A DNA stretch of 64,000 nt, from assembly GCA_022711495.1 (NCBI GenBank), contig JAKLEX010000001.1, positions 151,058 through 215,057 of the forward strand. The letters are read 5' to 3'. A model generated the notes under the pieces. It had not been told where the DNA came from. It did not search any database and saw only the letters and a list, made by a program, of their open reading frames with translations. A program made the position numbers and the translations under genes. This document shows positions 4,934 through 63,414 of the stretch, one piece after another. How positions within the stretch are numbered: position 1 is the first letter of the stretch; every line of letters begins with the position of its first letter. The DNA is from Patescibacteria group bacterium (lineage in GTDB: Bacteria; Patescibacteriota; Minisyncoccia; Phycocordibacterales; JAACPR01).

Positions 4934-4937
4934 TCTG

Positions 4938-5312
4938 TGGAGATGGCGGGAATCGAACCCACGTGCAAACAAAGCCGGCACATACTTCTACAAAGTCTAG
5001 TTTATCTTTTGTATTCGGTCGCTAAGCTAAAAGATAAACAGAACACTTAGCAACCTAAGCCCTTGATTTTGAAATGAATTCGGGCGGAAACATTTCTAGC
5101 TTGATGATTGTCGCCTCAGCTGATTTATCAAGCTTCAATCAGTAAAACGTCGCTTAGGCTAAAGCGTAAGCGAATGCAAAGTCGCCAACCCGATAGGGTG
5201 AAGCGATAGCTTTTGAATTCTCTGCACTTAAATTTTGTCGCCTTTTTAAGAGTTACGACAGCTCTACTTTGCGCATATGTCGTGCGTTTGCCTGTCTAAG
5301 CCGATCATCCCC
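4938..5312 (-). ncRNA. ssrA: tmRNA (SsrA), about 375 nt, CCA not encoded
   Basis: 5' GGGGAUGAUCGG... (reverse complement of 5301-5312). 3' ...GGUUCGAUUCCCGCCAUCUCCA (reverse complement of 4938-4963). It forms a 7 bp acceptor stem with the G3:U wobble. The internal tag frame ...GAC UUU GCA UUC GCU UAC GCU UUA GCC UAA (..DFAFAYALA stop) is the reverse complement of about 5154-5190. smpB is immediately upstream on the same strand. Confidence 0.8.
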
Positions 5313-10810: not shown

Positions 10811-10904
10811 TATTAATTATCAGAATTGTATGACATTTCAGCGTGTCCGACAAATAAAGAACAAATAAAAATCGCGCCCATATCTCAGGGCGCGATAGAG
10901 AGGC

Positions 10905-11168
10905 CTACCTCCTTACTTTGTTTGGCGGTGGGTAGTTGGTTGCAAACAAACTACCCAGTTCCACCACCTCCTTTTGAGGAACTGTTTTTGCCGGGATGCC
11001 CCACCTCGGCTTATTGCCAAGACGAATCTTTTTCTCTTCTAACGCGACCTGGTTCATCTGTCTTATGGACAGGAGCGCCAGTAAGATAAAGACCGCGATT
11101 CCTGCCCACCTAATAACCGGTTCACGGAAGACAACGCCGAACATCACCATTACAGTCATCAACACCAT
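10905..11168 (-). CDS. Small hydrophobic membrane protein (87 aa)
   Basis: ORF track. Its ATG immediately follows the TAG of the upstream small ORF (TAGATG), consistent with translational coupling. The block is GC-rich. Confidence 0.35.
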   Translation of the reverse strand: MVLMTVMVMFGVVFREPVIRWAGIAVFILLALLSIRQMNQVALEEKKIRLGNKPRWGIPAKTVPQKEVVELGSLFATNYPPPNKVRR

Positions 11169-11288
11169 CTAGATCGTAACCGTCACTGACCACATGAAGT
11201 CAACTCTGGAGGTTAACAAAAAAACCGCGATGACGGTGTTTATGACTGTTAATGCCCATACGACAAAGAACCTCAATCCCGTTGTCAT
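11169..11288 (-). CDS. Small membrane peptide (39 aa, MTTGLRFFVVWALTVINTVIAVFLLTSRVDFMWSVTVTI)
   Basis: Hand translation. It is below the 60 aa cut-off of the track, hydrophobic, and has a weak GAAAGG Shine-Dalgarno sequence. Confidence 0.3.
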   Translation of the reverse strand: MTTGLRFFVVWALTVINTVIAVFLLTSRVDFMWSVTVTI

Positions 11289-11430
11289 GTCAGCCTTTCT
11301 TTGTGGTTATAAGTCTCTAAGTGTAAGTATAATGAAAAATGATGATTCTGTCAAATAAAAGTTTGGGGAGAATCTTCGTCTGGACTCCCGTTCATTTATC
11401 TGATAGTTTGGCCCTAGAAAGGAGTACAAA

Positions 11431-12786: not shown

Positions 12787-13392
12787 ATGTCTGCACTATT
12801 TTCATTTCTTTCGGCAGTCTTCATGATTGCTGTCTTTGTCCTGTATTTCAAACAAGTTCATAACAGTGATTCAACGCCGAATCCAGCCACCTGGTTGGTT
12901 TGGATCATAGTAATGTCAATAAACACAGCGACTTACTATTTCGTCTCTGACGGGAAGCTGCTGTCTATCGTGACACCATTGGTTACCATCATCGGTATGG
13001 TAGTGATCATGGTATATGCTACGAAAGTAGGACGAATGGGAAAGATCGGGCGCGTCGATACAGTTTGCTTTATCTTAGCGATCGTCGTTGGGATATTCTG
13101 GCAAATCAGTAAAGACAGTCTGATCTCGAACCTGATGATGCAAGTTGTGTTTATGATCAGCTACATACCGACGATTGTCGGGTTGGCACGAGGCAGGTTG
13201 AAAGAAAAAGCTTTGGCCTGGAACATGGCTGTAGCTTCGTACTTCTTTCTGATTCTCTCCATTCTCTCTGGTGAGAGGTGGACGATGGCGGAACTGATTT
13301 ATCCGACGATTAACGGATTGATCGGAAACGGTAGTATCCCATTGATACTGTGGTGGAAGAAAATGAAAGGAGGTAAGAATGCCAAACATTGA
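12787..13392 (+). CDS. Hypothetical polytopic membrane protein (201 aa)
   Basis: AAGGAGGG Shine-Dalgarno sequence and about 6 predicted hydrophobic helices. Confidence 0.55.
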   Translation: MSALFSFLSAVFMIAVFVLYFKQVHNSDSTPNPATWLVWIIVMSINTATYYFVSDGKLLSIVTPLVTIIGMVVIMVYATKVGRMGKIGRVDTVCFILAIVVGIFWQISKDSLISNLMMQVVFMISYIPTIVGLARGRLKEKALAWNMAVASYFFLILSILSGERWTMAELIYPTINGLIGNGSIPLILWWKKMKGGKNAKH

Positions 13393-13672
13393 GATTCATG
13401 GATTCAGAGACGGGGGACAGATCGCCGCCGAAATTCGTGCCCTGATAAGCGCGCGCATTCCTGAAGTAAAGGATGACTTCGTCACAACGGTTGTGCCGTC
13501 TAAGGTTACGAACTGGAGCGTTATTTCTCGTCCGTTTATTCGGGTGGCCAGCACAAACAAGAAGGATCTGGCCCGTGTCGCCCGCCGAATCAACCTAGAG
13601 CTTGGTCTTGATGTGGAGTGGCTCTTACTCGGCGCCTTCTTTGAAGGAAAAACCGGGTCCTGGCGTCGGTAA
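13379..13672 (+). CDS. Hypothetical protein (97 aa), overlapping and translationally coupled to the upstream membrane protein
   Basis: AAGGAGG before the ATG. It overlaps the upstream stop by 14 nt, and a terminator follows. Confidence 0.5.
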   Translation: MPNIEIHGFRDGGQIAAEIRALISARIPEVKDDFVTTVVPSKVTNWSVISRPFIRVASTNKKDLARVARRINLELGLDVEWLLLGAFFEGKTGSWRR

Positions 13673-13680
13673 ACCGACAC

Positions 13681-13713
13681 AAAGCGCGTCAGCAATGGCG
13701 CGCTTTTTTATTT
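13681..13713 (+). terminator. Rho-independent terminator
   Basis: aaagcgcg ... cgcgcttt stem followed by ttttttattt. Confidence 0.55.
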
Positions 13714-13915
13714 CCAATTTTGGCGGTGTATTCTTAAAATAGCTCGAACTGAATTTCCTCGCCGCGCTCCGCGCGGCTCGGATTGGGCGGGCGGGCAAAA
13801 ATGAGTGGCTCCGCCGCGAAAATTAACGATTTCAAGTTTTTCTTTGGCGGCAAATTCTTTTCGAGAAAAATGCTCTTTAACAAGACGAGAAATAGTTACT
13901 AACCGATAGTCGTGC

Positions 13916-61891: not shown

Positions 61892-61920
61892 TTGACAAAA
61901 CGTTGTAGATATACTAATAT
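61892..61920 (+). promoter_or_regulatory. Strong sigma70-like promoter TTGACA-N17-TAATAT driving the downstream ncRNA candidate
   Basis: ttgaca (61892-61897), a 17 nt spacer, then taatat (61915-61920). Confidence 0.5.
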
Positions 61921-61927
61921 TCCAAGC

Positions 61928-62258
61928 AGAATTTTCAGATCAGAATAAGCTCTTTCCACGGTTGCCCAATCTAGCTTTGCGGACAAATCCGATAGGTCAT
62001 TCCGGGCGATTGTCGCCATAACTCTCCAAACAGGCGTTGGGGGAGTGAAAGCGATGCAGGTCTAGGCGTTCTATCGCGACCTCCTTGGCGCCGAATTGCG
62101 GAGCGCCATATTGCGGACATGGCGTTCCGTCGTGACCCAATCCGTCCGGCCGGCCTAGCGGAGCAAAGTCTTTGCGGGCAACCGTGGTCCATTTTAAATC
62201 TAACTATATGTCTATCCAAAGTCCGAGCGCGATCTTCGCCCTCGGACTTATTTTTTTG
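61928..62258 (+). ncRNA. Candidate structured ncRNA (about 330 nt). RNase P RNA or a long-form SRP RNA are the leading hypotheses; unclassified
   Basis: It is a promoter-to-terminator unit with no ORF. GC is about 58%, against about 43% in the flanks. A 12 bp closing helix ccacggttgccc (61960-61971) pairs with gggcaaccgtgg (62178-62189). The terminator is aagtccgag...ctcggactt + TTTTTTT (62219-62258). There is a UCCGGGC / CGUCCGG pair reminiscent of P4. It sits immediately upstream of dnaX. Confidence 0.45.
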
Positions 62259-62275
62259 TTATACTTATCCTAATT

Positions 62276-63331
62276 ATGGTCGGAAAAATCGAAAACACTT
62301 TTCAAGCTTTATATACCAAATATCGTCCGCAGAAATTTTCTGAAGTAATTGGACAAGATCATGTTGTGGATGTTTTGAAGGCGGCGCTGAAACAGGGAAA
62401 GGTGGCGCATGCTTATTTATTCTCTGGTTCGCGCGGAACAGGCAAGACTTCAGTGGCGAGGATTTTGGCTTCAGAAATTGGCACGACCAGCAAAGACTTA
62501 TATGAAATTGACGCCGCTTCTAATAATGGTGTTGAGGAAATTCGCTTGCTCAACGAAGCGGTTTTAACTTTGCCGTTTGATTCAAAATACAAAGTTTATA
62601 TTTTGGATGAAGTTCACATGTTGTCTAAGCCGGCTTTTAATGCGCTTCTTAAAACTTTGGAAGAACCACCAAAGCATATTGTTTTTATTTTAGCGACGAC
62701 TGAACCGCAGAAATTGCCAGAGACAGTGATTTCTCGCTGTGAACATTATGAATTTAAGTCGCCCAATCGAGCGGTTTTGAAAAAAATGGTAATGGCTACG
62801 GCGAAGAATGAAGGTTATGAGCTTGAACCGGAAGCGGCCGAGCTCATAGCTATTCTTGGCGACGGATCTTTTCGTGACGCGCTAACCAGTTTGCAGAAAT
62901 TGATTCGTTCGTCGGATGATAAGAAGTTGTCGCTGGCTGAAGCGGAAAAAGTTTTGGGAGCGCCACAGATTTCCATGATTAATTCGGTGGTTGAGGCTAT
63001 TCTGGTTGGGGATAAGGAAAAGGGGCTTTCGGCCTTGGCTACAGCCGCTGAGAAAAACATTGATGCTAAAGTTTTTGTGAAGTTATTGCTTGAAAAAATT
63101 CGGGCGGCTCTTTTAATCAAAATCGCGCCGACGAAAAAAGATTTATTTGAGGGGGTGGTTGGGGAAGATGACTTAGCTTTTTTGAGCGGGCTAGTAACAA
63201 AGTCCGTTGGGCGCGTTGACTCAAAAGTCTTGTCACGTTTGCTTTCGGTTTATGAAGAAACTTTATCTTCGCCATTGCCTTATTTGCCTCTGGAACTTGC
63301 TATAATTGATTTCGCGCAGGAAAAAGGATAA
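62276..63331 (+). CDS. dnaX: DNA polymerase III subunit gamma/tau (short form)
   Basis: Walker A GSRGTGKTS and the clamp-loader AAA+ pattern, 351 aa. Confidence 0.9.
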   Translation: MVGKIENTFQALYTKYRPQKFSEVIGQDHVVDVLKAALKQGKVAHAYLFSGSRGTGKTSVARILASEIGTTSKDLYEIDAASNNGVEEIRLLNEAVLTLPFDSKYKVYILDEVHMLSKPAFNALLKTLEEPPKHIVFILATTEPQKLPETVISRCEHYEFKSPNRAVLKKMVMATAKNEGYELEPEAAELIAILGDGSFRDALTSLQKLIRSSDDKKLSLAEAEKVLGAPQISMINSVVEAILVGDKEKGLSALATAAEKNIDAKVFVKLLLEKIRAALLIKIAPTKKDLFEGVVGEDDLAFLSGLVTKSVGRVDSKVLSRLLSVYEETLSSPLPYLPLELAIIDFAQEKG

Positions 63332-63342
63332 CCTGTGCTTTA

Positions 63343-63414
63343 TTGCCGGATCGTCTAATGGTAGGACATCGCCCTTTGGAGGCGAGTATCTTGGTTCGAA
63401 TCCAGGTCCGGCAG
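63343..63414 (+). tRNA. tRNA-Gln (anticodon UUG)
   Basis: UGCCGGA/UCCGGCA acceptor stem, anticodon stem UCGCC/GGCGA with loop CUUUGGA, T-arm GGUUCGAAUCC. Confidence 0.75.

Follow-up and report, generated by a model that had tools for sequence, protein, structure and literature searches.

Several described RNAs bear comparison with a structured RNA encoded directly upstream of a dnaX gene. The C-rich-loop small RNAs (sRNAs) of Gram-positive bacteria, among them RsaE/RoxS and the 3' hairpins of RNAIII, repress translation by pairing their loops with Shine-Dalgarno (SD) sequences, while fast-evolving scaffold RNAs such as 6S RNA and Y RNA cannot be aligned between modestly diverged species and keep their paired termini, length and stability. 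The slot itself, directly 5' of dnaX, is typical of signal recognition particle (SRP) RNA (4.5S/ffs; RF00169, RF01854) without defining it. Here we analyse a 64,000-nt stretch of a Patescibacteria group bacterium (assembly GCA_022711495.1, contig JAKLEX010000001.1, positions 151,058 to 215,057, forward strand), hereafter the window, in which a guanine-cytosine (GC)-rich unit at 61927–62258 stands between dus and dnaX. We conclude with good confidence that this unit is a genuine new structured non-coding RNA gene with its own promoter and terminator, carried by a narrow clade of Paceibacteria (candidate phyla radiation (CPR)/Patescibacteria). That the RNA works through an anti-SD mechanism is a tentative proposal, and the complete explanation, in which new gene and anti-SD action form one statement, is possible rather than probable. 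A literature search returned no description of this RNA or of peculiarities of SRP RNA in CPR bacteria; the structured RNA is apparently undescribed, and its function we infer. The parts of the unit are as follows.

61892–61920, forward strand: sigma-70-type promoter (–35 box TTGACA at 61892–61897, 17-nt spacer, –10 box TAATAT at 61915–61920).
61927–61955, forward strand: U-rich 5' leader, its start predicted from the position of the –10 box.
61956–61967, forward strand: 5' strand of the closing helix P1, CCACGGUUGCCC, in perfect 12-bp pairing with 62176–62187.
61968–62175, forward strand: structured interior (208 nt, 58% GC), predicted to be multi-branched and including local hairpins.
61980–61991, forward strand: hairpin CGGA-CAAA-UCCG, read from the sequence.
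62002–62008 with 62143–62149, forward strand: 7-bp pairing CCGGGCG/CGUCCGG, a nested helix in the predicted fold.
62005–62017, forward strand: hairpin GGCGA-UUG-UCGCC, read from the sequence.
62079–62086, forward strand: anti-Shine-Dalgarno-like motif ACCUCCUU, which contains CCUCCU.
62163–62175, forward strand: hairpin GCAAAG-UC-UUUGC, read from the sequence.
62176–62187, forward strand: 3' strand of P1, GGGCAACCGUGG, pairing with 61956–61967.
62188–62195, forward strand: 3' flank U-CCA-UUUU, of the family form N-CC(A/U)-U-rich.
62219–62257, forward strand: intrinsic terminator with the stem AAGUCCGAG/CUCGGACUU and an inner GCGA/UCGC stem, followed by a U7 tract.

A first-pass annotation, made by reading the DNA, had proposed an unannotated structured RNA in a promoter-to-terminator unit, and this headline is now supported by orthologues, a compensated P1, the lack of coding signal and the lack of any Rfam match. 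The near-consensus promoter it described (TTGACA-17-TAATAT) is in place, as is the terminator it put 18 nt before the dnaX start codon: the hairpin spans 62219–62249, the U7 tract runs from 62251 to 62257, and the ATG lies at 62276. This hairpin is paired in the minimum free energy (MFE) fold of the unit and was absent from the output of an automatic terminator scan because its loop exceeds 8 nt. With a promoter and a terminator of its own, the element is an independent non-coding transcription unit; these two signals predict strong transcription as a separate gene, with a putative primary transcript of ~330 nt in which a 232-nt core is closed by the 12-bp terminal helix. No forward-strand open reading frame (ORF) of at least 30 aa occurs within 61927–62118, as had been claimed. 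A small-protein hypothesis was rejected as well, since tblastx matches between members fall on identical nucleotides in several reading frames and on either strand, and the members have no ORF in common. The GC content of about 58% noted earlier holds for the helix-to-helix core (59.5%) but not for the whole unit (61927–62258; 52.7%), compared with 42.9% in dus, 42.7% in dnaX and 43.6% across the window.

All three local hairpins are present as first described. The 12-bp long-range helix is likewise real and perfect, although it had been placed 2–4 nt away from its correct position, 61956–61967 with 62176–62187. The unit folds much better than its dinucleotide shuffles (MFE z –4.9), with values of –5.2 for the core and –3.3 for the interior without P1.

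The DnaX encoded beside the element assigns the window's genome to the Paceibacteria. Relatives of the element were sought at the dnaX (or Dus) loci of other genomes, ~10 kb each and numbered with the prefix L. The element recurs unchanged in GCA_035454325.1 and in JGI and Logan assemblies, and orthologues stand in the dus-dnaX interval of three other Paceibacteria species: L161 (core at 370-597; DnaX 85% identical), L001 (2672-2899; 83%) and L162 (2205-2431; 79%). All three open with a perfect TTGACA –35 box and a U-rich leader, keep the closing helix with N-CC(A/U)-UUU on its 3' side, and end in a terminator; the perfect –35 box also precedes the members in L164 and L166, and leaders in relatives measure 25–45 nt and contain a GAUC(U)UU-like motif. 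Shorter forms were found in remoter lineages (DnaX 67–73%), namely in L164 and L166 (76 nt), L168 (69 nt) and L163 (175 nt). The last of these (L163:1046-1220) has a closing helix of ~20 bp, a CCUCCUC loop and a promoter and terminator to itself; its neighbours are dus and a methyltransferase gene, not dnaX, and it may be a member of the same family of intermediate size. The element was not found in the dus-dnaX interval of two related lineages, L002/L175 and L165.

Conservation in relatives, which had been named as a check, thus came out in the element's favour, with the three species keeping the closing helix through compensatory changes. P1 is paired in 48/48 cells across the four large members; positions 1, 10 and 11 differ on both sides (C-G to U-A), and at position 8 U-A became U-G. 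Pairing falls to 27–42% when the register is slid, and the observed P1 values were reached by 10/500 shuffles, four sequences allowing no stronger statistic. The helix-to-helix span is 232, 228, 228 and 227 nt in the large forms despite several indels between L001 and L161, and the two 76-nt short forms are exactly equal in length. Folding z-scores range from –4.3 to –6.8 for the cores of all members and from –1.1 to –3.3 for all eight interiors without P1, each of which beats its own shuffles, and members exceed the GC content of their genomes by 12–20 points. What is kept across species is the closing helix, the 227–232-nt span, high GC, the N-CC(A/U)-U-rich 3' flank and the hexamer CCUCCU, with the remaining sequence free to change.

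The interior itself evolves without restraint on its sequence: between species with dnaX 74–79% identical at the nucleotide level, interior identity (0.50–0.53) equals the shuffled baseline (0.50–0.51), and it reaches 0.61 between L001 and L161, whose dnaX genes are 84% identical. A multiple alignment and RNAalifold analysis of the interiors was unreliable outside P1, with a partial alignment obtained for L001 and L161 alone. Baseline identity is what would be expected if the unit had no current function and were a decaying or selfish GC-rich insertion of the intervening-sequence type, or the relic of a small gene, flanked by inverted repeats, promoter and terminator through chance; its absence or very short form in some related lineages and its place in an interval rich in lineage-specific units point the same way. 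Such an origin is nonetheless improbable, as it does not account for compensatory changes that maintain a perfect P1, a length kept despite indels, elevated GC content and better-than-shuffled folding in all members, a conserved perfect –35 box, or the element's single copy in the window and its lack of counterparts in phage and viral data.

The family is narrowly distributed. A strict descriptor (a ≥10-bp helix plus GG.CAAA and CC[AU]UUU) matched only family elements in ~0.87 Mb on both strands, and a relaxed version yielded nothing more than AT-rich chance matches. Neither blastn nor nhmmer with the element gave a match among 80 dnaX loci, even in a relative with 83% DnaX identity; a metagenome scan with DnaX found no relative closer than 58%, and a Dus-based search with contig look-ups added no further species, L172/L173 belonging to the L161 lineage and L174 matching L162. 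A mobile or phage origin was considered and rejected: the window holds one copy, phage records gave no blastn match to the element, and a scan of viral contigs for the P1 pattern returned chance matches within genes only. Two GC-rich gaps in the window (10811–11306 and 13393–13915) were also rejected as paralogues, as they resemble small protein genes.

Comparison with known families used Rfam 15, searching the window at gathering thresholds, the 551-nt locus at E ≤ 10 and ten related loci at E ≤ 1. At gathering thresholds the window contains one tmRNA and six tRNAs, and nothing was matched on the element; the 551-nt locus gave only noise on the terminator hairpin (weak matches, E > 0.07). Across all these searches the matches were confined to tRNAs, tmRNA and such terminator noise, and neither SRP RNA nor RNase P RNA, 6S RNA or any further family turned up at the 551-nt locus or for the element in the ten related loci. 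The five models proposed at the outset for this check (RF00010, RF00011, RF00169, RF01854 and RF00013) were among those run, without a match at E ≤ 10. The tmRNA (4935–5312, reverse strand) is a standard one-piece molecule scoring 121 bits, so that the housekeeping RNAs of this genome are not generally out of Rfam's reach. The first-pass annotation had left the choice between a divergent housekeeping RNA and something new; the second is favoured and the first disfavoured.

The SRP RNA alternative raised there fits by gene position. Canonical SRP domain IV (gucAGGnCCGGAAGGnAGCAgc) lies ~100 nt 5' of dnaX in those loci retrieved by the same DnaX query that come from Firmicutes, Actinobacteria and Polyangia (L066, L067, L069, L071, L074, L078-L080, L144, L146, L149, L153, L154 and L158), whereas a domain IV expression (AGG-N2-5-GNRA-N2-5-AGCA) found no match before dnaX at any of ~111 Patescibacteria loci (numbered within L001-L065 and L081-L143). 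The element could accordingly be a radically derived ffs at the ancestral ffs-dnaX position, its domain IV lost or remodelled. A strong constitutive-type promoter agrees with this, as do the pairing of its two ends with each other and the N-CC that follows on the 3' side, which recall the E. coli 4.5S RNA, a known RNase P substrate. No defining SRP feature accompanies them, however. The earlier failure to see domain IV by eye was borne out by the expression search, which found no GNRA tetraloop or AGG/AGCA loop motif in the element; neither RF00169 nor RF01854 matched the locus (E ≤ 10) or its relatives (E ≤ 1), the short forms show no conservation in their apical loops, and the interior stands at shuffled-baseline identity, unlike SRP RNA. 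The family is also missing from the interval in L002/L175 and L165, lineages at similar distance, which would be unexpected for an essential RNA unless it had moved. The SRP protein Ffh is not encoded within the 64-kb window. We regard a derived SRP RNA as distinctly improbable, and as slightly less probable again the proposition that the ffs position holds either an SRP RNA remodelled beyond domain IV or a new RNA that took over the locus after SRP RNA was lost.

A divergent RNase P RNA or 6S RNA is largely refuted and retains only a marginal probability. The large forms share with RNase P RNA (RF00010/RF00011) a P1-like terminal helix, their size (~230 nt) comes close to that of reduced RNase P RNAs, and the window's string AGGUCAUUCCGGGC resembles the RNase P motif CR-I, AGGAAAGUCCGGGC. 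The 7-bp CCGGGCG/CGUCCGG pairing, which had been likened to the RNase P P4 pseudoknot, does exist, but it is nested rather than pseudoknotted; both it and the CR-I-like string are confined to the window's copy and absent from L001, L161 and L162. The element has no CR-I to CR-V set, no P4 pseudoknot and no covariance-model match. RNase P RNA would call for a catalytic-domain architecture of at least ~200 nt in every member, and forms of 69–76 nt exist in this family, which therefore can be neither RNase P nor 6S RNA. For 6S RNA (RF00013), the predicted fold is multi-branched rather than a rod with a central bubble, a fold prediction being weak evidence, and there was no match at E ≤ 10. This branching also separates the element from Y RNA, as do the lack of a Ro/Rsr or other partner gene nearby and of an Rfam match, and its resemblance to both RNAs lies in rapid sequence turnover around kept ends, length and stability.

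The element might instead act in cis on dnaX, as a riboswitch or attenuator leader or as a transcriptional insulator that shields a leaderless dnaX mRNA from transcription arriving from upstream. It lies immediately 5' of dnaX on the same strand, its terminator ends 18 nt short of the ATG, and alternative pairings exist, GCAAAG pairing either locally or with a 5' CUUUGC. A further feature bears on this possibility.

62257–62265, forward strand: dnaX's own extended –10 box TGTTATACT, outside the RNA and 10 nt before the ATG at 62276.

Located 3' of the terminator, this box is matched by the same TGnTATACT/TATAAT box before dnaX in L001, L002, L003, L161, L162 and L164. Since dnaX thus has its own –10 box and no SD sequence, RNA reading through from the element would be poorly translated. 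Other genes stand between the RNA and dnaX in L163, L164 and L166, no terminator/antiterminator competition is conserved, and the interior is not conserved and therefore offers no ligand-binding core. Neither continuity with the dnaX mRNA nor a conserved binding core was found, and we give a cis-acting role little credence.

A clue to how the new RNA may act is CCUCCU, the anti-Shine-Dalgarno core, which an unbiased k-mer comparison identified as the sole hexamer common to all four large interiors. Dinucleotide shuffles share any hexamer 3% of the time and share CCUCCU in all four in 0/2000 cases; the hexamer occurs in 6.5% of GC-rich 200-nt windows of real Patescibacteria DNA, giving a p^4 of ~2e-5. 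Its complement GGAGG is absent from the family RNAs. In predicted hairpin loops, the probability that the motif is unpaired is 1.00 in L161, 1.00 in L162, 0.78 in L001, 0.59 in L163 and, as UCCUC, 0.91 in L166, compared with a mean of 0.32. An accessible C-rich motif complementary to SD sites is thereby found across the orthologues, only partly exposed in the window's copy and with L164 and L168 as exceptions.

Based on these observations, we propose that a stable, length-constrained scaffold would display the C/U-rich anti-SD-like loop, that the loop would base-pair in trans with GGAGG ribosome-binding sites, and that the RNA would thereby repress a small minority of SD-dependent mRNAs, the other genes being mostly leaderless or SD-less. 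In the window, an SD of at least 5 nt precedes 3/40 long ORFs at any plausible start; ORFs with an SD include those starting at 12787 and 13380. A TATAAT-like box 6–15 nt 5' of many ATGs (e.g. 15919, 17092, 27276, 30228, 31317, 32066, 33901 and 62276) implies mostly leaderless or very short-leader mRNAs; leaderless translation in CPR/Patescibacteria was not described in the literature that we searched. Strong SDs are found mostly at small ORFs, some of which neighbour a family RNA in relatives.

The C-rich-loop sRNAs resemble the element in being stand-alone genes with their own promoter and intrinsic terminator, and in their stable stem-loop scaffold showing C/U-rich SD-complementary loops; by analogy, the action proposed here may likewise be Hfq-free. 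They share no sequence or covariance-model similarity with it. The window's RNA is two to three times longer, has a long terminal helix and a conserved overall length, and carries the full anti-SD CCUCCU where theirs is UCCC/CCCC; its host genome hardly uses SD sites, and its targets are only hypothetical.

Several points weigh against this reading. In the window's own copy a predicted stem partly buries the motif (probability unpaired 0.34), and CCUCC is missing from two of the short forms, L164 and L168. The motif was noticed post hoc, with four to five independent sequences. Taking as target the GC-rich unit that adjoins the studied RNA in relatives (RNA1, see below), the longest complementary stretch in cognate pairs was no better than in shuffles, and full-length duplexfold of the two RNAs was uninformative. 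A simple loop-display model also leaves unexplained the precise length and the conserved 3' N-CC(A/U) flank. Lastly, within the L161 lineage (L172/L173) the 228-nt core shows 0 changes compared with 35/1056 in dnaX, but this contrast is confounded and no proof of purifying selection, because the low-divergence tract to which the core belongs reaches into the start of dnaX and recombination could explain it. That tract (L161:357-814) comprises 458 nt with 2 differences and takes in the RNA and its tail together with the opening 100 nt of dnaX. Divergence on its two sides is ~9% (promoter and leader) and 3.8% (remainder of dnaX), and the tract may stem from recent recombination.

The main rival is a different function, one in which the ends matter: the terminal helix and its flanks would be functional, the interior would be a length-constrained scaffold, and the molecule would serve as a ribonucleoprotein core or be processed. 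The 12–15-bp helix with N-CC(A/U) would then be a protein-binding or processing determinant, such as a minihelix for RNase P, whose substrates include the precursors of 4.5S RNA and tmRNA, or a stem of the RNase III type, and CCUCCU would either bind a protein or be fortuitous. Only P1 with its flanks can be aligned over all members, length is fixed in both size classes (227–232 nt for the large forms and precisely 76 nt for two short ones), and a U-rich leader of 25–45 nt precedes P1. CCA is encoded in just 2/6 tRNA genes of the window, so that an encoded CCA after P1 is no genomic default. The flank is nevertheless not constant. It is CCU rather than CCA in L001, L161 and L162, and UCU, with UC for CC, in strain L172; in L168 the CCCAU flank is base-paired, leaving no free 3' overhang, and L163 is almost leaderless and has no CC flank. 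The same paired L168 flank and CCU/UCU variants weaken the idea of a tRNA-acceptor mimic built from the 12-bp helix and N-CCA. No partner protein gene is linked to the RNA, its neighbours being dus, dnaX, a peptidase gene and a tRNA gene. On balance, a function resting in the ends is rather unlikely, and anti-SD action by the new structured RNA is the reading that we retain as the best explanation.

RNA1 is a second GC-rich promoter-to-terminator unit, located between dus and the studied RNA in relatives and missing from the window. It was observed at L001:1996-2605, L162:1680-2140 (matching L174:1222-1680), L172:3510-3990, L164:365-830, L168:1500-1790 and L177:3480-3780, and consists of a conserved structured 5' part and an SD-led small ORF of 22–35 codons with a weak common TGPP motif. 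It also contains an orphan GAAAGGAGG that no start codon follows, and it has no Rfam match. In L164 (1079-1204) and L166 (~1722-1823), the 76-nt short form and dnaX are separated by a small basic ORF that is SD-led and has a KWRKK motif in common, and in these lineages the 76-nt RNA may serve as the 5' leader of the KWRKK ORF.

About a dozen other Patescibacteria lineages have GC-rich, ORF-free dus-dnaX units of their own (up to ~480 nt), including L003:2465-2965 (same sequence in L083), L090, L026, L012, L093, L096, L084, L086 and L087. These can be aligned neither with one another nor with the window's RNA, and the L003 unit, scanned permissively, gave no Rfam match; they were rejected as relatives, since their cross-matches proved to be the dus 3' end. 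The dus-dnaX interval appears to be a hotspot for lineage-specific RNAs. Downstream of it, the window's DnaX (62276–63331) is a gamma-like protein of 351 aa without the tau C-terminal domains, directly followed by a tRNA gene (63344–63414) in an arrangement kept in many relatives.

The non-coding RNAs of CPR bacteria are almost unexplored, and the published surveys of GC-rich intergenic regions that we examined covered no CPR genome. Against this background the unit is a clean, testable example, in which a strong promoter and a terminator enclose an RNA whose closing helix covaries and whose length is fixed while its sequence turns over at neutral speed. Metatranscriptomic reads could be mapped to it as a defined target, and a covariance model of it could be used to annotate Paceibacteria genomes. 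We regard the finding as moderately interesting, since next to nothing is known of CPR RNA biology, shape has been kept here without sequence, and an anti-SD motif occurs in an SD-poor genome. Should the RNA prove to be a former SRP RNA, this would change what counts as universal in the SRP; a remodelled or lost SRP RNA would make this the first among free-standing bacterial lineages whose SRP RNA is non-canonical or missing, a condition known so far, to our knowledge, only from some plastids and mitochondria. Ultimately, if the exposed anti-SD motif is functional, the RNA would represent RNA-based control of a few SD-dependent genes in an organism that otherwise appears to translate leaderless or SD-less mRNAs.

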